Shown in pieces: positions 9,403 to 16,348 of a stretch of 64,000 nucleotides of DNA. A program made the translations under genes and the position numbers. Location: assembly GCA_013286305.1 (NCBI GenBank), contig JABDFW010000008.1, positions 1,596-65,595 of the forward strand. The letters are read 5' to 3'. Every line of letters begins with the position of its first letter. The stretch's first letter is position 1. Below the pieces are notes generated by a model. The model did no database searches, was not told where the DNA came from, and was given only the letters and a program-made list of their open reading frames with translations. This stretch comes from Bacteroidota bacterium. Its GTDB lineage: Bacteria; Bacteroidota; Bacteroidia; Chitinophagales; Chitinophagaceae.

Positions 9403-10056
9403 ATTAAAGCAGTCATTTTTGATCTTGACGGAACTATTGCTGATACATTACCCCTGTGCATAAACGCCTTTAGAATAGCCATTGAGCCATTAGCCGGAAG
9501 AACATTAACTGATGAAGATATTATTGCAACATTCGGCCCTTCGGAGGAAGGGACCATTATGGCCCTGGTACCGGAATTTTATGATAAAGGGCTTGCGGAT
9601 TATTTAGTTTTTTACGAAGCATTGCACAACCATTGCCCCGCCCCTTTTGATGGTATTATTGAAATGCTTGAATTTTTACACAGCAGAGGGGTGCGTATAG
9701 CAATGGTTACAGGCAAAGGCCACAGCAGCACAGAAATATCTTTAAACCAATTTGGCATTAAGCACTACTTTTCGCAAATAGAAACAGGCTCGCCGCTTGG
9801 CCCAGTAAAAGCAGCTTGCATTGAAAAAGTATTGAATAACTGGAATGATCTTGATAAAAACGAAGTGGCATATATTGGCGATGCACCAAGCGATATAATA
9901 GCAAGCAGAAAAGCGGGCATCCCCGTAATTGGCGCTGCATGGGCTGAAACAACTGATGCCGAAAAATTAAAACTATTGCAGCCGGATCAAATTTTTTATA
10001 GCATCAACGACCTTGATAAATGGCTACAGGAAAACATTGCCAACGATCTCAATTAA
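9340..10056 (+). CDS. HAD-superfamily hydrolase (phosphoglycolate-phosphatase-like)
   Basis: HAD motif I (VIFDLDGTIADT), motif II (VTGK) and motif IV (YIGDAPSDI). The start is uncertain: a TTG at 9340, and the N-terminus overlaps a repeat copy. Confidence 0.8.
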   Translation: MSKVGNYDINPDKRSSLGDGGIKAVIFDLDGTIADTLPLCINAFRIAIEPLAGRTLTDEDIIATFGPSEEGTIMALVPEFYDKGLADYLVFYEALHNHCPAPFDGIIEMLEFLHSRGVRIAMVTGKGHSSTEISLNQFGIKHYFSQIETGSPLGPVKAACIEKVLNNWNDLDKNEVAYIGDAPSDIIASRKAGIPVIGAAWAETTDAEKLKLLQPDQIFYSINDLDKWLQENIANDLN

Positions 10057-10069
10057 AAAATTGTCTGTT

Positions 10070-11731
10070 ATGAAAAGATATTTATGGTTCTCTTTTTTAC
10101 TAACCAGCGCGGTTGCAACGTCCTGCTTTTTAAACAATAATGCGAATAAAGATGATGGCCTTGCTGCCTTTAGTGCAGACAGCCTTATTGAGCATATTAA
10201 AATACTTTCATCCGATTCGTTCCAGGGCCGCAAACCCTTTACAGCAGGCGAAACAAGAACAGTTGATTATCTACAAAAAGCTTTCGCTTCAGTTGGCCTG
10301 GAGCCTGGCAATGGCAACAGTTATTTACAGGATGTACCCATGGTAAATATCCTCTCACAACCTGCGCCATTTATGCAGGTACAATCTGCTAAAGGAAATT
10401 TCCAGTTAAAGGGCTTTGACGAATATATTCTTTCAACACCAAAAACCGATTCGCTTATCACCCTTAATAATGATCAATTGGTTTTTGCCGGCTATGGTGT
10501 AGTTGCGCCTGAGTATAACTGGAATGATTATGCAGGCCTTGATGTAAAAGGTAAAATTGTAATGGTGCTGGTAAATGACCCCAGTTTTAATAACAACGAT
10601 ACTACTTTATTTAAAGGCAAAACCATGACCTATTACGGCCGCTGGACCTACAAATTTGAGGAAGCAGCAAGACAGGGCGCGAAAGGATGTTTGGTTATAC
10701 ACAGCACCGCGGCGGCAAGCTACCCGTTCAGCGTTGTGCAAAACGGCTGGAACACTTCGGCACTGCATTTAAATAACGGTAACAAAAATGAAAATTTATT
10801 AGATGCGCAGGGATGGATAACGACCAAAGCAGCAAAGAAGCTGATCATAGCGGGCGGGCAGGACACCAGTATAATTGCCAAGGCAGATATAAGGGGTTTT
10901 AAAGCCGTACCCCTGGATGTAAAATTATCTACCACCATAAAGGCAACTGCAACGTATAACAAATCGCACAACGTAATTGGTAAAATAACCGGCAGTAAAT
11001 ACGCCGATGAATATATTATTTATACTGCACACTGGGATCATTTAGGTATTGGCAAACCCGATGCAAGAGGCGACTCTATTTACAATGGCGCACTTGATAA
11101 TGCCAGTGGCACCGCTTCACTGCTTGAATTTGCAAGGGCGTTCAAAAGCCTTAAAACGCCGCCTGAAAGAACTATTATTATTCTTGCCGTAACCGGTGAA
11201 GAACAAGGTTTGCTTGGCTCCGCCTATTATGCCCAACACCCTGTTTATCCTGCAGAAAAAACAGTAGCCAATATTAATGTTGACGAAGTGAACTACTATG
11301 GAAAAACAAAAGATATCATGGTTGTCGGGCAAGGACAAAATGAGCTTGAAGATATTTTGAAAGAAGAAGCAGAAAAACGTGGCCGCTATATTTCCTATGA
11401 CAATACACCGCAGGCCGGGCATTATTTCCGGTCAGACCATTTTAGTTTTGCCAAAGCGGGCATACCCGCTCTTGCCCAAAGTTTTGGTATTGATGTGATA
11501 GGCAAGGGCAAGCAATATGGCCAGCAAAAAGAAGAAGAATTTAATGAAAAGCATTACCACAGCCCGTCTGATGAATACAACACAAGCTGGGACATGAGTG
11601 GCGCAATAGACGACCTGCAACTGTTATTCCTTGTGGGCAAAAGGCTTGCTTTTGACCATACCTGGCCCGAATGGAAAGAGGGATCGGAGTTTAAGGCTAT
11701 AAGGGATAAAAGTAAGGGTGCAAGGGAGTGA
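10070..11731 (+). CDS. M28 family (aminopeptidase-like) metallopeptidase with PA domain
   Basis: Signal peptide MKRYLWFSFLLTSAVATSC from the ATG at 10070. M28 metal-binding motifs are present (HWDHLG, NGALDNASG, TGEEQGLLGS, HYHSPSD). Confidence 0.85.
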   Translation: MKRYLWFSFLLTSAVATSCFLNNNANKDDGLAAFSADSLIEHIKILSSDSFQGRKPFTAGETRTVDYLQKAFASVGLEPGNGNSYLQDVPMVNILSQPAPFMQVQSAKGNFQLKGFDEYILSTPKTDSLITLNNDQLVFAGYGVVAPEYNWNDYAGLDVKGKIVMVLVNDPSFNNNDTTLFKGKTMTYYGRWTYKFEEAARQGAKGCLVIHSTAAASYPFSVVQNGWNTSALHLNNGNKNENLLDAQGWITTKAAKKLIIAGGQDTSIIAKADIRGFKAVPLDVKLSTTIKATATYNKSHNVIGKITGSKYADEYIIYTAHWDHLGIGKPDARGDSIYNGALDNASGTASLLEFARAFKSLKTPPERTIIILAVTGEEQGLLGSAYYAQHPVYPAEKTVANINVDEVNYYGKTKDIMVVGQGQNELEDILKEEAEKRGRYISYDNTPQAGHYFRSDHFSFAKAGIPALAQSFGIDVIGKGKQYGQQKEEEFNEKHYHSPSDEYNTSWDMSGAIDDLQLLFLVGKRLAFDHTWPEWKEGSEFKAIRDKSKGARE

Positions 11732-11766
11732 GGAGACGGGGAAATTAATCATTACGACAAATCATT

Positions 11767-12816
11767 TTACGGTTCTTTAAAATGAAATTGAGGGATATTT
11801 TCACTTGCTTTTATGGATGTAACCATATAAGCAAATAAGTCTTGTAGTCCATCATCTTCATCAAAGATTTTTTCAATTCCAATTTTTATTTTTTCAATTT
11901 CTATATTCTTGCCGATAACGCTTCTTAATTGAATGGTAACTTGTTCTTCATTTAAATAATAGGGGCTTGCTAAATATAAGTTCGGTATAGACAAAGAATA
12001 ATATTTTGCATGTAACATAATAACACTAAGCATATCCTTTCTACAAAAAAGATCTAATTTAACTAATAGCTTTTTCCCAAAAAGGTTTAAAACAGTTATA
12101 CAACAGGTTTCGTCATCATTCACATGGACATGCGTAATAATAAAATGATCTAATTCAAAAATGTTCGGTAGCCCAACATAATCTTCTAAATCGTAATTGC
12201 CTGGATGTTCATCCCAAACATGGTTGGATTCCTTGTATTTTAAAAACTCTTTGTATTCGTTTAGAAATGGCAGGCCGACTTTCTGTAATCTTTCGAAGTT
12301 AATATTATCATTCAAAGCGTCATAAGTATGAGGAATCGTTGTTTCTGCTAATTCATCAAGTTTTTCGGCCGCCTTTAAAACAGCTAAAATTTCATCTTCA
12401 TTATAAATTCCCCGGAAAAATATTTCGTAATACAGAAATAAATTATAGCGCGTCGCGGTAATGCCAATTATAGGCAAAACTTCTACAGCATCTTGCAGCA
12501 TATTTCTTGCTTCTATCAAAATTGCTATATCTTTTTCAATGGGGGCAAGCAAGAATTTTTCAGCCTCATTTTTTAATTTTTCAAATAGTATGTCCGCCCT
12601 TTTTTTTACATTAATATTTGAAAACCCCTGTTCTTGGAGTATATCTGAATATTGCCATGCCATAAAGGGGAGTCCAAACTCGGTAAGGATTTCTTCTTCC
12701 AAAATTGCCATTGTTTGCCCTATTCCTTCGTCCAAAGAGCTTTCACCAGCTTCATGCCATTTGTAAGCAGCGTTTATATATTCAATAATTTTTTGCTTAA
12801 GCACTCCCTTTTCCAT
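11767..12816 (-). CDS. Hypothetical protein (349 aa), AT-rich island gene A
   Basis: Long uninterrupted ORF in a strongly AT-rich stretch. I recognise no family signature. It is co-directional with the next ORF, with a 31-nt gap. Confidence 0.65.
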   Translation of the reverse strand: MEKGVLKQKIIEYINAAYKWHEAGESSLDEGIGQTMAILEEEILTEFGLPFMAWQYSDILQEQGFSNINVKKRADILFEKLKNEAEKFLLAPIEKDIAILIEARNMLQDAVEVLPIIGITATRYNLFLYYEIFFRGIYNEDEILAVLKAAEKLDELAETTIPHTYDALNDNINFERLQKVGLPFLNEYKEFLKYKESNHVWDEHPGNYDLEDYVGLPNIFELDHFIITHVHVNDDETCCITVLNLFGKKLLVKLDLFCRKDMLSVIMLHAKYYSLSIPNLYLASPYYLNEEQVTIQLRSVIGKNIEIEKIKIGIEKIFDEDDGLQDLFAYMVTSIKASENIPQFHFKEP

Positions 12817-12847
12817 TAGTATTTCAGGTTAATCGGCTAAAAATAAG

Positions 12848-13510
12848 CTAACCTTTAACCCTGTCCGGGTTATTTAATATTTCAAACAATTTGGGACAAT
12901 TTCCTTTACTGATAGTCGCATTTCTCGCAACATTTAAAGTTATAAAGTTATCTACCAAATTGTCAACTAGTTCCAACCATAATTTTTTTGAGCGAGCAAC
13001 TATTATGATAGCCTTTCTTTCAAGGGCCTTTTTTACCAAATGCATCGTATAATCACGTGATGGCAAATTTTTTATGTGCCTAAATTCTTTGGAGCTATAT
13101 GGGTCATATTGTATAACAGAAACTATTTTAGAAACGCCCTCCCAATCTTTATAAAAAGGAAGTAGCTGTTTTAATTTGGGTTCCCAATAGCCTTTCCCGA
13201 CCTGAATATTGGGGTCAAGGCCAAAAAATGGAAAATGCTTACATTCATGTTTAAATACACTCATTAATTTTTCCTTATAGTGCTTATCTTCTTTCGCTTT
13301 AGTTCCTTTGTCATATTTTGGATTCGACATCAGGATTACAATTTCACTATTAAATACGTCGCCACTAAATGGAACGGGCATAACATCAAGCATTATTTCG
13401 TAATTCTTCCCTTTCCATTTTTCATTATGATTAAATATCGCTTTCTCGTCTTCAGGTAATACAAAAGGTTCATTTTGTGGTATATTATACCAGGGATTTA
13501 CAATTTTCAT
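12848..13510 (-). CDS. Hypothetical protein (220 aa), AT-rich island gene B
   Basis: Long ORF in the same AT-rich block. It contains PVPFSGDVFNSEIVILMSNP and IQYDPYSSKEF segments but no family I can name with confidence. Confidence 0.65.
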   Translation of the reverse strand: MKIVNPWYNIPQNEPFVLPEDEKAIFNHNEKWKGKNYEIMLDVMPVPFSGDVFNSEIVILMSNPKYDKGTKAKEDKHYKEKLMSVFKHECKHFPFFGLDPNIQVGKGYWEPKLKQLLPFYKDWEGVSKIVSVIQYDPYSSKEFRHIKNLPSRDYTMHLVKKALERKAIIIVARSKKLWLELVDNLVDNFITLNVARNATISKGNCPKLFEILNNPDRVKG

Positions 13511-13901
13511 AACCGGATTTTTTTATTTTATTTTAAACTTAGAAATGATAATTTTCACTACGAAGACCAATTCAGGATTAAATAATTTGTTCCAACAAGA
13601 TACCTATTTTATTTCGGGATTTCAAACATTTTGACGAGTTTTTTGCGAAAAATTTTAGCCTATTTTATAAGGATTAAATTCAAATTGATAGAAAGAAATG
13701 GTGTCAAAAAGTGATGCGGGTTTATACTTGTTCGTTCTAAAGCATTCCCCAAAACCCCGATAGCCCCTTTACGGTAAACCTAAAATCTTTTTTTTATTCC
13801 CTTCAAAACCTCTTCTCGCCCCCAAAATTTCTCATTTTTCCACTTCAAACAAACAACGTTTCTTTGCAGCAAAATTAGCCTGGGAGTTCAATAGCCGGCA
13901 A

Positions 13902-13961
13902 GTCAGAAAGATACCTATACCATTTCTTGCAGACTTTCTGTCTTCCGGACTTTCGGACTTT
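13902..13961. repeat. Short-word hairpin containing the dispersed 15-mer CTTCCGGACTTTCGG
   Basis: GTCAGAAAG...CTTTCTG complementarity, plus CTTCCGGACTTTCGG at 13942-13956. The same 15-mer occurs at 42631-42645, and inverted at 31155-31169. Confidence 0.6.
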
Positions 13962-13980
13962 TACCAACTACATACATTAA

Positions 13981-15285
<1,305 letters not shown>

Positions 15286-15870: not shown

Positions 15871-16110
15871 ATGCCGAATTTTACTACTGAAGACCTGCTA
15901 CTTTATATGTATAATGAAATGAGTAAACTGCAAAAAGCTGCCCTTGAAAAGGAGCTTAAAACTAACTGGGCGTTAAGGGAAAAATTACGTGTTTTAAGCG
16001 AATCTGAACAAAGGTTGCAAAAATTAAGCCTTCATTCCCCCCGAAAGCAAACTGTTGAAGCTATTATGGAATATGCCGCAAATTCATCGGAAGTTTCGTC
16101 GTCAAGGTAG
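15871..16110 (+). CDS. Small hypothetical protein (79 aa)
   Basis: ORF with a helical, non-repetitive sequence. Only the last few codons run into the TACGAAT repeat block. No recognisable family. Confidence 0.45.
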   Translation: MPNFTTEDLLLYMYNEMSKLQKAALEKELKTNWALREKLRVLSESEQRLQKLSLHSPRKQTVEAIMEYAANSSEVSSSR

Positions 16111-16348
16111 CTTTCCGTATCTACGAATACGAATCTATCAAGGTAGTTTCCCGTATCTACGAATACGAATAAATACGAATATACGAATTGGAGGCTACAT
16201 CCATCTACGAAATACGAATCAATACGAATATACAAATTGGAGGATATAAAGAAAGCGGGTTGAATTTGCAATGTACGAGATTCTTAATGCTAAGACACTT
16301 TAAACCCGTGTCGTTCTCTATTCGTAAATTCGTATTGATTCGTATTTC
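16103..16348. repeat. TACGAAT-word repeat block with an inverted distal arm
   Basis: Two tandem ~35-bp units (CAAGGTAG(C/T)TT(T/C)CCGTATCTACGAATACGAAT) and further (A)TACGAAT words at 16103-16240. The complementary words ATTCGTAAATTCGTATTGATTCGTATT sit at 16320-16347. Confidence 0.75.

Follow-up and report, generated by a model that had tools for sequence, protein, structure and literature searches.

An AT-rich two-gene island in a Chitinophagaceae genome encodes a Brig1-related putative DNA glycosylase and a putative acidic accessory protein

Which function could be served by two genes that lie side by side between an M28 peptidase gene and eno, in a block much richer in AT than its surroundings? 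The question concerns a 64,000-nucleotide stretch of contig JABDFW010000008.1 (Bacteroidota, Chitinophagaceae), called the window hereafter, in which a prediction made from the nucleotide sequence had singled out this island as a candidate for a horizontally acquired two-component module. Both open reading frames are on the minus strand, with exactly the coordinates and lengths given in that original prediction: geneA (12848..13510) encodes 220 aa and geneB (11767..12816) encodes 349 aa. The 31-nt spacer between these co-directional ORFs (12817..12847, minus strand), in which no minus-strand terminator-like site was found, is consistent with a single transcription unit. GC content is 0.29–0.35 over positions 11600–13800 versus 0.40–0.47 in the flanks, and when the window's 45 non-overlapping ORFs with a minimum length of 150 aa are ranked by GC, this pair supplies the two lowest values, 0.325 (z = −4.64) and 0.333 (z = −4.25), which bears out the AT-rich island that had been delineated by eye. 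Of the two deviations that had been proposed for checking, in GC content and in codon usage, the first was recovered, also at third codon positions (GC3 is again lowest for the pair, with z = −3.95 and −3.00 relative to the same ORFs), and the second was not, the codon-choice log-likelihood computed against the window pool flagging neither gene (z = +1.5 and +1.8). We set the latter measure aside in favor of GC and GC3 because its value is largely determined by the AT preference of the genome itself.

Upstream of geneA, a non-coding spacer of 491 bp (13511..14001, no strand assigned), presumed to be a promoter region, separates geneA from the divergent eno gene. It contains no ORF of at least 50 aa and has a GC content of 0.338, in agreement with the predicted AT-rich stretch of about 490 bp, except that only the geneA-proximal 300 bp are AT-rich, the eno-proximal 200 bp being GC-normal. 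Promoter and terminator matches around the island were not above chance, no Rfam match was found around the island or in the 13511..14001 spacer, and searches around the island found no tRNAs and no flanking repeats or att sites of note. The flanks of the island in the window are housekeeping genes, as had been proposed, and include no defense or mobility genes; nth, which encodes endonuclease III, lies 3 kb from the island. A synteny comparison with 80 metagenomic loci containing relatives of the M28 peptidase (44–74% identity), where eno, ligA, the HAD gene, geneA and geneB were all absent within 8 kb, is uninformative rather than negative as to an insertion, since gene order in this region is not conserved at all in the nearest relatives available.

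Neither geneA nor geneB matched Pfam, PADLOC, NCBIfam or PHROGs, and a Pfam scan of 58 members of the geneA family also gave no matches. The original prediction that the proteins belong to no recognizable family thus stands as far as these databases are concerned; it does not hold in the wider sense, since geneA belongs to an unnamed family, absent from Pfam, with 1,973 representatives at 50% identity. The AF2 model of geneA (pLDDT 95.9, pTM 0.92) was compared by Foldseek with the PDB and with a viral library (BFVD), and the top matches were enzymes from several families of the UDG superfamily (BdiUNG, TDG, family 4, UdgX, UNG and phage UDGs). All of them score weakly, with a best E-value of about 1e-2 (at least 9e-3), probabilities of up to 0.94 and TM scores of 0.3–0.4. 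Judging from this model, geneA has a UDG-like fold, in keeping with the earlier hunch of a DNA-modifying fold for the 220-aa protein.

Sequence comparison points to a more precise relationship. Profiles of the geneA family aligned with Brig1 over ~110 columns with hhalign E-values of 2.4e-5 (profile A4) and 7.8e-6 (profile A3) and probabilities of 76–84%; in a control, the score was 42.5 for the real Brig1 sequence versus 13.4 ± 2.5 for 100 shuffled sequences (maximum 20.4). With phmmer, 21 members of the family matched Brig1 directly at E<1e-3 (best 2.4e-6), and the pairwise BLAST comparison of geneA with Brig1 is marginal when taken alone (E 0.011). By these profile and family-level comparisons, geneA is remotely homologous to Brig1, a glycosylase whose antiviral activity has been proven experimentally. 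It lies outside the canonical UDG families 1–6 (Ung, MUG/TDG, SMUG, family 4/5, UdgX) insofar as it has neither a PF03167 match nor a match to a UDG sequence in the PDB, the family profile retrieving no UDG from PDB sequences at E<=10, and an hhalign comparison with the verified E. coli MUG aligned one motif alone (motif A, see below; E 0.06). The profile searches that had been recommended thus assigned neither gene to a housekeeping family, and for geneA they led to Brig1 instead.

The alignments place the residues known to matter in Brig1 opposite the best conserved positions of the geneA family. Motif A of geneA, 'EIVILMSNPKY' (residues 56–66, 13313..13345, minus strand), contains the N63-P64 pair, which corresponds to the Asn-Pro of 'LGLNPG' in Brig1 and 'GINPG' in MUG in a register that is consistent across alignments; among 256 family representatives, the Asn is present in 253 and the Pro in all 256. 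Y108 (13187..13189, minus strand) falls, in the hhalign register, opposite Brig1 Y121, a base-stacking residue required for activity (PMC11078745), and its column contains W (213/256) or Y (39/256). Motif B, 'VIQYDPYSSKEF' (residues 132–143, 13082..13117, minus strand, hhalign register versus Brig1), carries Q134 (13109–13111, minus strand) at the position of Brig1 E147, which reads the base face and whose replacement by Gln abolishes immunity to T4 (PMC11078745). geneA therefore has no Glu equivalent to E147. In the family, this column is occupied by E in 215 of the 256 representatives (84%), by Q in 36 (14%) and by N in 2 (1%), and the family members linked to a geneB gene all have Q or N, which suggests that the Gln marks a change of substrate class and does not place geneA outside the superfamily. 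Altogether, N63-P64, Y108/W109, E/Q134 and P137-Y138-(H)-S140 are nearly invariant; geneA itself has a Ser where the family has a His (206/256), and this 'PYSS' state, like Q134, is common to its two nearest homologs.

These data also bear on whether geneA might have a UDG-like fold without being a glycosylase, acting for example as a DNA- or nucleotide-binding sensor or through other chemistry. Such a role would accommodate a structural similarity that, at TM 0.3–0.4, is one of fold alone, the replacement of the Glu essential in Brig1, and the presence of non-UDG, alpha/beta hydrolase-like folds (cutinase, metformin hydrolase) among the weak matches. The latter, however, have probabilities of 0.06–0.16 versus up to 0.94 for UDGs, and the positions aligned with the catalytic and recognition residues of Brig1 and MUG are precisely the most conserved ones in the family, so that we consider a non-glycosylase extremely improbable.

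The likeness between geneA and Brig1 extends beyond the hhalign (E about 1e-5) and phmmer links. Both are small, single-domain members of the UDG superfamily without a Pfam UDG match, both appear to occur in variable AT-rich or defense contexts, and Brig1 and the geneA family share the patterns 'P-[DE]-P-[WYF]-x-G ... L-x-L-N-P-G' and 'E-[LY]-[YF]-P-[WY]-H-S' as well as the aromatic stacking residue. They differ in that geneA is only ~20% identical to Brig1, carries a Gln where Brig1 has E147 and a Ser instead of the motif His, and in that its family comprises ~2,000 clusters (50% identity), in other phyla too, compared with 42 reported Brig1 homologs. Moreover, Brig1 acts alone, whereas geneA has a dedicated neighbor here.

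This neighbor, geneB, is far rarer: its homologs form 26 clusters among 5.8 billion proteins, were found among reference genomes only in a handful of Chitinophagales MAGs and were absent from viral contigs. The 349-aa protein had been described as helical and acidic with a C-terminal beta-rich part, a description that its net charge of −25 and its AF2 model (pLDDT 82) corroborate. According to DSSP applied to the model, an N-terminal all-helical domain (residues 1–205, 12202..12816, minus strand), for which no fold or family match was found, is followed by a beta-rich domain (residues 219–337, 11806..12162, minus strand) with the order beta-beta-beta-alpha-beta-beta. The helical domain is the most conserved part of the family, with a mean column conservation of 0.74 over alignment columns 1–110. 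The C-terminal domain of the model is possibly an OB-fold: ~20 of the top 50 Foldseek matches of geneB are OB-folds (SSBs, Cdc13, Stn1, B subunits of AB5 toxins), all weak, with a best E-value of 0.04 and low TM scores. At the sequence level, the geneB-family profile retrieved neither an SSB nor any other relevant match from PDB sequences, the Pfam SSB domain PF00436 did not match geneB, and hhalign against E. coli SSB (E 0.19) aligned an irrelevant region and revealed no similarity. Note that the strong acidity of geneB makes an SSB-like wrapping of ssDNA unlikely.

The most telling feature of the geneB family is its C-terminus. In 23 of the 26 homologs, a poorly conserved linker leads to a terminal acidic-[LYF]-PF sequence that resembles an SSB tip (D-[DG]-L-P-F) and matches the SSB-Ct sequences DDDIPF and DDDLPF (PMC5531588, PMC5872125). 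The relatives of geneB thus resemble SSB in having a folded, possibly OB-like domain, a variable linker and an acidic-hydrophobic-Pro-Phe-COOH tip; they differ from it in their lack of sequence homology, their additional 200-aa helical domain and their strong acidity. A further difference is specific to the window, where geneB ends in ...FHFKEP and the SSB-type tip ([IL]-P-F-COOH after a disordered linker) is missing despite being a family feature. A stop codon has removed it, and its decayed remnant follows in frame (11752..11766, minus strand; AAT GAT TTG TCG TAA), reading N-D-L-S-stop versus S-D-D-L-P-F-stop in the homologs. Gene calling in an independent assembly (L016) gave an identical 349-aa product. 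We also considered that the tail might be a beta-clamp-binding motif, and rejected this on the motif itself, D-D-L-P-F-COOH being distinct from the QL[SD]LF of clamp-binding proteins.

Loss of the tip raises the possibility that the horizontally acquired cassette is a decaying remnant, non-functional in this genome, and the Ser present in geneA instead of the usual His and the Gln found where 84% of the family have Glu could be read in the same way. The 'PYSS' and Q134 states are nevertheless common to the two nearest homologs of geneA and therefore look like a subfamily trait rather than decay. Besides, both ORFs are full length and free of frameshifts, the family-invariant residues are kept, and the same sequence is found in independent assemblies. 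For the island as a whole, decay thus seems very unlikely.

The genomic surroundings of the homologs of geneB provide further evidence. At all 12 distinct geneB loci examined, geneB adjoins a partner gene, which is of the geneA type, encodes a DUF1643 protein or is of a third, 251-aa type, and which lies either upstream or downstream; gene order flips between loci, some of which contain one or two intervening TPR genes. This agrees with the expectation that the two families should co-occur elsewhere, with the extension that geneB may have an alternative small partner. In 10 of 11 geneB loci the cassette is AT-rich (GC 0.28–0.34, 3–11 points below the flanks), and the sites are unrelated: one cassette lies within a nuo operon, one where a Mu-like prophage ends and one beside a Y-family polymerase gene. 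The fixed position and normal composition that would have spoken against the original prediction were therefore not observed. Members of the geneA family are mostly solo, including the closest homolog of geneA, whose defense island also encodes a NucC-like nuclease and an AriA/OLD/GajA-type protein (6e-59). Other members adjoin Cas9, AbiEii/WYL, PemK or PIN genes, and the Ferruginibacter cassettes adjoin a defense-type WYL regulator. An HhH-GPD glycosylase gene is found two genes away from one member of the family. A 220-aa gene upstream of geneB at locus L104 was compared with the geneA family and turned out not to belong to it. As for the alternative partners, single-sequence hhalign and PDB searches with the DUF1643 and 251-aa proteins gave no significant evidence of a UDG fold, and a three-sequence DUF1643 profile aligned with A4, A3 and Brig1 over a 'GLNP[SG]' motif alone, with non-significant E-values of 0.03–0.16. 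Pfam, we presume, places DUF1643 in the UDG clan.

Partner swapping would be explained if geneB were a DNA mimic, which could inhibit diverse UDG-fold enzymes. The pair would then be a toxin–inhibitor module in which geneA damages host DNA and geneB, an acidic inhibitor like Ugi, p56 and SAUGI, prevents geneA from attacking the chromosome unless infection occurs or the cassette is lost, either of which would release it. Protein inhibitors of UDGs are well known (PMC3711442); like geneB, Ugi, p56 and SAUGI are acidic, tied to UDG-fold enzymes and located on mobile elements, and the charge of −25, the constant adjacency of a UDG-like partner and the operon-like 31-nt spacing suit this scheme. 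The known inhibitors, however, are phage- or SCC-encoded DNA mimics of 56–112 aa that block the host Ung, whereas geneB has 349 aa and two domains, is encoded beside the enzyme that it accompanies, has no homology to them and gives no Pfam UGI or SAUGI match. Nor is the arrangement that of the fixed pairs of type II toxin–antitoxin systems: gene order flips, TPR genes intervene, the partner family is swapped and the geneA family is mostly solo, the ~2,000 largely solitary clusters implying that the enzyme is tolerated without geneB. With the conserved SSB-like tip also left unexplained, we regard a toxin–inhibitor module as unlikely.

An SSB tip typifies the hubs of genome maintenance, and repair is the primary role of the UDG superfamily. 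The island could accordingly serve a lineage-specific DNA repair process in which geneA would excise an endogenous lesion and geneB would hold it, by way of the SSB interactome, at ssDNA coated with SSB or at replication forks. The housekeeping flanks, with nth 3 kb off, the HhH-GPD glycosylase near one family member and the Y-family polymerase gene near one cassette could be taken in its favor. Repair is harder to reconcile with a patchy distribution, varying loci, a strong AT bias relative to each host, the presence of geneB in only a handful of Chitinophagales MAGs, and contexts such as a nuo-operon insertion, a prophage end and defense islands. It was by mobile and defense contexts that defense glycosylases were separated from housekeeping ones (Getz et al., bioRxiv 2025.10.29.685425), and a role in repair appears improbable to us.

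The reading that we favor, with a probability of roughly 0.55, is that the island encodes a Brig-type defense glycosylase and a new accessory protein, which together would form a small, mobile cassette of a new two-part design directed against phages. geneA would most likely be a highly diverged UDG-superfamily glycosylase that flips a non-canonical base out of phage DNA and cuts its N-glycosidic bond; the resulting abasic sites would block phage replication, and unmodified host DNA would be spared. Classical UDGs read the base face with an Asn. Brig1 does so with a Glu (PMC11078745). Set against these two, the Gln of geneA makes a uracil- or thymine-type modified pyrimidine a likelier target than a cytosine derivative. 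Against this reading stand the low-scoring fold matches, the lack of any UDG among the Pfam and PDB sequence matches of the family, the marginal pairwise comparison with Brig1, the replacement of the Glu that Brig1 needs, and the housekeeping flanks of the island in the window. The deviating composition, the fold, the homology with Brig1, the conserved active-site positions, the constant proximity of geneB to such enzymes, the tail motif with its loss and the changing insertion sites were observed here; glycosylase activity, the class of substrate, a part in defense and the way in which geneB acts are inferred.

The literature offers precedents for such a cassette. Brig1 and Brig2 are single-gene UDG-like defense glycosylases in AT-rich, mobile contexts (PMC11078745; bioRxiv 2025.10.29.685425). 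Brig2 and related integron-borne UDG-like proteins are at most 20% identical to Brig1 and have more than 500 homologs, including some in Bacteroidota, but only one of seven integron UDG-like candidates was protective against the phages tried (Getz et al., bioRxiv 2025.10.29.685425), a proportion that speaks against the favored reading. By their description, Brig2-type proteins resemble geneA in their divergent UDG fold and, it seems, in their AT-rich mobile regions, and the thymidine-type hypermodifications targeted by Brig2 fit the Gln/Asn variant to which geneA belongs; unlike geneA, they are described as solo cassettes with no geneB-like partner. In this last respect the closer parallel is Brig3, which works with an operon partner, BapA, that widens the range of the glycosylase (Mejia-Pitta et al., bioRxiv 2026.02.25.707755): here too, a Brig-type glycosylase, putative in the case of geneA, is encoded in one closely spaced operon with a single accessory protein, whose family was not known before. 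BapA is, however, a two-beta-barrel, ASCH-like glucosyl hydrolase (bioRxiv 2026.02.25.707755), whereas geneB, compared with this published description, combines a 200-aa helical domain with a single beta domain, is strongly acidic and, in its relatives, ends in an SSB-Ct-like tip.

As to the accessory protein, geneB would most likely couple the glycosylase to the SSB interaction network. The C-termini of SSBs bind UDGs (Handa et al. 2001, cited in PMC7145534), and SSB-Ct is known to have more than 17 partners, UDGs included. The geneB tip might thus bind the UDG-fold enzyme in the way that SSB binds Ung; or else SSB-partner nucleases or helicases might be recruited to the damaged phage DNA. 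The tipless copy in the window counts against this mechanism, which depends on the tail, and the net charge of −25 counts against ssDNA binding by geneB; in this genome, where the stop codon removes the tip, the coupling has probably been lost or altered. A bolder proposal, which we make tentatively and consider doubtful, is that geneB represents a new class of 'Brig-associated' adaptors, SSB-tip mimics that would plug interchangeable UDG-fold glycosylases (of the geneA, DUF1643 and 251-aa types) into the host SSB network, thereby coupling base excision in phage DNA to replication-fork proteins or SSB-partner nucleases.

Only a few families of defense DNA glycosylases are known, to our knowledge. 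All are recent, Brig1 dating from 2024, Brig2 from 2025 and Brig3-BapA from 2026 (PMC11078745; bioRxiv 2025.10.29.685425; bioRxiv 2026.02.25.707755). The present locus ties a large unannotated family, with ~2,000 clusters at 50% identity, to Brig1, and the residue that reads the base switches naturally between Glu, Gln and Asn in this family, so that the substrate class of a member could perhaps be predicted from it. In addition, the locus brings to light another type of operon partner, the second so far, for Brig-type enzymes, and the SSB-tip-like C-terminus of this partner's relatives suggests a route by which base excision may be coupled to the replication and repair hub. If the cassette is indeed antiviral, glycosylase-based immunity would extend to Bacteroidota, new glycosylases specific for modified bases would become available as tools, and DUF1643, which is also found on SCCmec elements and phages, would gain a candidate function. 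Should the adaptor proposal be correct, geneB would be the first defense accessory known to act by SSB-tip mimicry, and a function would be assigned to DUF1643 and to the unnamed ~2,000-cluster glycosylase family.

The island consists of geneA (minus strand, 12848..13510, 220 aa) and, 31 nt away, geneB (minus strand, 11767..12816, 349 aa), exactly where the original prediction had placed the two genes. The sliding GC profile reads 0.29–0.35 over positions 11600–13800 versus 0.40–0.47 on either side, as expected from the AT-rich block described earlier, and when the window's 45 non-overlapping ORFs of 150 aa or longer are ranked, the two lowest GC contents (0.325 and 0.333; z = −4.64 and −4.25) and likewise the two lowest GC3 values (z = −3.95 and −3.00) belong to this pair of genes. 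This composition anomaly is far beyond chance. The spacer towards eno, previously put at about 490 bp of non-coding DNA, measures 491 bp, contains no ORF of at least 50 aa and is AT-rich in its geneA-proximal part. No repeats, tRNA or RNA families mark the island borders. Searches of Pfam, PADLOC, NCBIfam and PHROGs returned no match for either protein, in keeping with the earlier statement that no family could be recognized; for geneA, however, this statement must be amended, as the protein has both a large family and an experimentally characterized relative.

A word-indexed search returned only two relatives of geneA; the exhaustive profile search of 1.84 billion representatives gathered 1,973 proteins at E≤1e-3, including 103 at E≤1e-30, which are annotated as 'hypothetical protein' in the source records. 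Most are about 220 aa long and some contain extra domains: DUF6508 (PF20118) is fused N-terminally to some members (P0049, P0214 and P0283), and larger members (P0045, P0063, P0068 and P0121; 450–725 aa) display extra regions without Pfam match. The very confident AlphaFold2 model of geneA, based on a 110-sequence alignment (pLDDT 95.9, pTM 0.92), finds its best Foldseek matches in the PDB among UDG-superfamily enzymes of several families, namely Bradyrhizobium UNG (E 1.2e-2, probability 0.94), human TDG, the Thermotoga and Thermus family-4 UDGs, UdgX, and the cod, human and S. aureus UNGs; on the viral side, UDG-like proteins of phages rank highest. The fold scores are weak (TM 0.3–0.4), so the resemblance to UDGs is at fold level only. 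Note that the family has no Pfam model and no PDB relative detected by sequence, and that geneA falls outside the definitions of the canonical UDG families.

The characterized relative is Brig1, a UDG-superfamily glycosylase that removes alpha-glucosyl-hmC from T-even phage DNA and provides immunity as a single gene (PMC11078745). Its sequence was taken from the supplement of that paper and reconciled with the DNA, which puts Y121, N145 and E147 at the published positions. Aligned with hhalign, two geneA-family profiles match Brig1 with E-values of 2.4e-5 (A4) and 7.8e-6 (A3), at a probability of 76–84% over about 110 columns; the real sequence scores 42.5, versus 13.4 ± 2.5 (maximum 20.4) for 100 shuffled versions. 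In addition, 21 individual family members match Brig1 with phmmer at E<1e-3, the best being P0037 (2.4e-6), which is 38% identical to geneA. The alignment superimposes (i) 'PDPWVGD...LVVLGLNPG' of Brig1 on the family motif 'PEPfLG...VVLLNLNPG', which reads ...IVILMSNPKY in geneA (N63-P64); (ii) Y121-W122 of Brig1 on Y108-W109 of geneA; (iii) 'NFE147LYPWHS' of Brig1 on the family motif 'CVEYFPYHS', which reads VIQ134YDPYSS in geneA. These landmark columns are the most conserved of the family: among 256 representatives, the N63 column contains N in 253 and the P64 column P in all 256, the Y108 column contains W (213) or Y (39), the Q134 column E (215), Q (36) or N (2), the Y138 column Y in 255 and the S140 column S in 251. 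From the profile and phmmer matches, the shuffle control and the conserved landmarks, we assign geneA to a large branch of the UDG superfamily that is related to Brig1. Next to this conservation, it seems very improbable that geneA is a non-catalytic UDG-fold protein.

The E147 position bears on the substrate. In Brig1, E147 reads the flipped cytosine derivative on its Watson–Crick face; the E147Q substitution abolishes immunity, and according to the same authors ordinary UDGs have an Asn at this position (PMC11078745). Gln or Asn is found there in geneA, in its two close homologs and in all geneB-linked family members, suggesting that the target of this subgroup may be a uracil- or thymine-type base. 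Such a putative target would parallel that of Brig2, which defends against thymidine-hypermodified phages (bioRxiv 2025.10.29.685425).

The pairing of the two genes also held up, although the type and order of the partner vary: a small partner gene adjoins geneB in 12/12 distinct geneB loci with usable flanks. The partner belongs to the geneA family in the window (upstream of geneB) and in loci where it lies downstream of geneB, either directly (L010/11, L012) or beyond one (L013, L015) or two (L004/5/6/14) TPR genes. Elsewhere it is a DUF1643 gene, upstream (L002/3, L103) or downstream (L104/5) of geneB, or a downstream gene for a 251-aa protein with the motifs 'FLGSSPGG' and 'MHPSRS' (L007, L008/9). 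A 'G-x-(N/S)-P-[GS]' motif found in both DUF1643 and the 251-aa protein lines up with motif A of geneA (around N63-P64); a relation of either to the UDG fold found no statistical support. Since geneA-family genes are mostly solo, the closest geneA homolog included, and since the closest geneB relatives (58–59% identity) have partners from outside the geneA family, the pair is real but modular, with geneB constant and the enzyme exchangeable. In staphylococcal SCC elements, DUF1643 genes adjoin the gene for the uracil-DNA-glycosylase inhibitor SAUGI (PMC10581047, PMC10821479), an adjacency that is suggestive given that three clades have DUF1643 in place of the Brig-like enzyme as the neighbour of geneB. 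The very acidic character of geneB (net charge −25) raises the alternative that it inhibits the glycosylase or acts as its antitoxin, which we consider unlikely; we favour a role as an adaptor, based on its C-terminal tip.

GeneB is rare, with only 26 clusters among 5.8 billion proteins; among reference genomes it occurs only in Chitinophagales MAGs (Ferruginibacter and relatives), and none was found in viral contigs or phage records. Its AlphaFold2 model (pLDDT 82) agrees with the helical, acidic protein with a beta-rich C-terminal part anticipated from the sequence: an all-helical domain (residues 1–205) precedes a beta-rich domain (residues 219–337) of strand-strand-strand-helix-strand-strand order. 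Foldseek gives only weak matches (best E 0.04), among which OB-folds are frequent (bacterial and mitochondrial SSBs, Cdc13, Stn1, AB5 toxin B subunits); by sequence, geneB matches neither SSB nor any PDB entry. In 23 of the 26 homologs, a poorly conserved linker leads to a C-terminal acidic-[L/Y/F]-P-F tip, most commonly D-[DG]-L-P-F, which copies the C-terminal tip of bacterial SSB (DDDIPF in E. coli, DDDLPF in Firmicutes; PMC5531588, PMC5872125). More than 17 proteins of genome maintenance dock on the SSB tip; uracil-DNA glycosylases are among them (Handa et al. 2001, cited in PMC7145534). The window copy lacks such a tip, ending in ...FHFKEP before a TAA stop; the following in-frame codons, AAT GAT TTG TCG TAA, read N-D-L-S-stop, by its sequence a decayed image of the S-D-D-L-P-F-stop of the homologs. 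An independent assembly has the same 349-aa gene call. That the whole cassette is a decaying remnant appears quite unlikely.

The cassette has a GC content of 0.28–0.34 regardless of the host background (0.31–0.43), 3–11 points under its flanks in 10 of 11 geneB loci, and its sites are unrelated to one another. In the window it lies between the M28 peptidase gene and eno. In L009 (1955–3782; also L008, 8001–9315) it is flanked, together with the 251-aa partner, by NuoL-type and NuoM-type Proton_antipo_M genes, apparently inside a nuo operon. In L007 (1–9450) it adjoins the repressor end of a Mu-like prophage with Mu Gam, DnaA_C-like, AAA_22 and Cro/C1-type HTH repressor genes and a 708-aa gene that has no Pfam match and may be a transposase. 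In L002 its neighbours are a Y-family polymerase gene and a small TA-like pair, and in the Ferruginibacter loci it borders a WYL/WCX regulator. In three Chitinophagales MAGs the cassette is followed by a conserved trio of WYL/WCX regulator, PNP_UDP_1 nucleoside phosphorylase-like and HSDR_N_2 genes (L004 9497–11985, L010 8256–10534, L013 4203–6694), of which the latter two may be either part of the system or housekeeping genes. The closest geneA homolog has on its contig a compact defence island (L001, 1150–6560), whose products are a DUF6602/NucC-like PD-DExK nuclease, a DUF2130 protein and an ATPase-TOPRIM protein of AriA/OLD/GajA type (E 6e-59), and other family members neighbour Cas9, AbiEii/WYL, PemK and PIN genes; plasmids of Streptomyces and Variovorax carry a few members, and an unannotated phage contig carries one. 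In L020 (6001–11511), about 500 bp separate a family gene from the type II CRISPR locus (Cas9, Cas1, Cas2) downstream of it, with an AbiEii/WYL gene nearby. Beside such neighbours, it is improbable that the geneA–geneB pair serves repair rather than defence.

Elsewhere in the window, the longest M28 peptidase ORF (572 aa) starts at a TTG and shares 44 nt (10013–10056) with the HAD gene upstream; its true start is probably downstream, since the gene is called with 553 aa in a public contig of identical sequence. The region between a 79-aa ORF and nth (16102–16346) contains a 36-nt unit repeated 1.9 times (16102–16170) and several copies of a AATACGAAT(A/C) decamer, one of them inverted (16328–16346); this repeat produces mirror-image ORFs on the two strands of the region, which are artefacts.

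Altogether, the reading that we favour, with a probability of roughly 0.55, is that the island is a mobile antiviral cassette that would combine a Brig-type glycosylase with a lineage-specific accessory protein. The low GC content, the unrelated sites and the constant presence of a partner support the original prediction of a horizontally acquired two-gene module, of which phage defence would be the putative function. The glycosylase would depurinate or depyrimidinate modified phage DNA, and geneB would couple it, through its SSB-like tip, to the SSB interaction hub, a tip lost in the window genome. We found no description of a defence accessory with such a tip in the literature searched, and the one precedent for a Brig glycosylase with an operon partner is Brig3–BapA (bioRxiv 2026.02.25.707755); compared by description, the architecture of geneB is unlike that of BapA in print. 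The locus would pair a Brig-like glycosylase with a partner of a new type.
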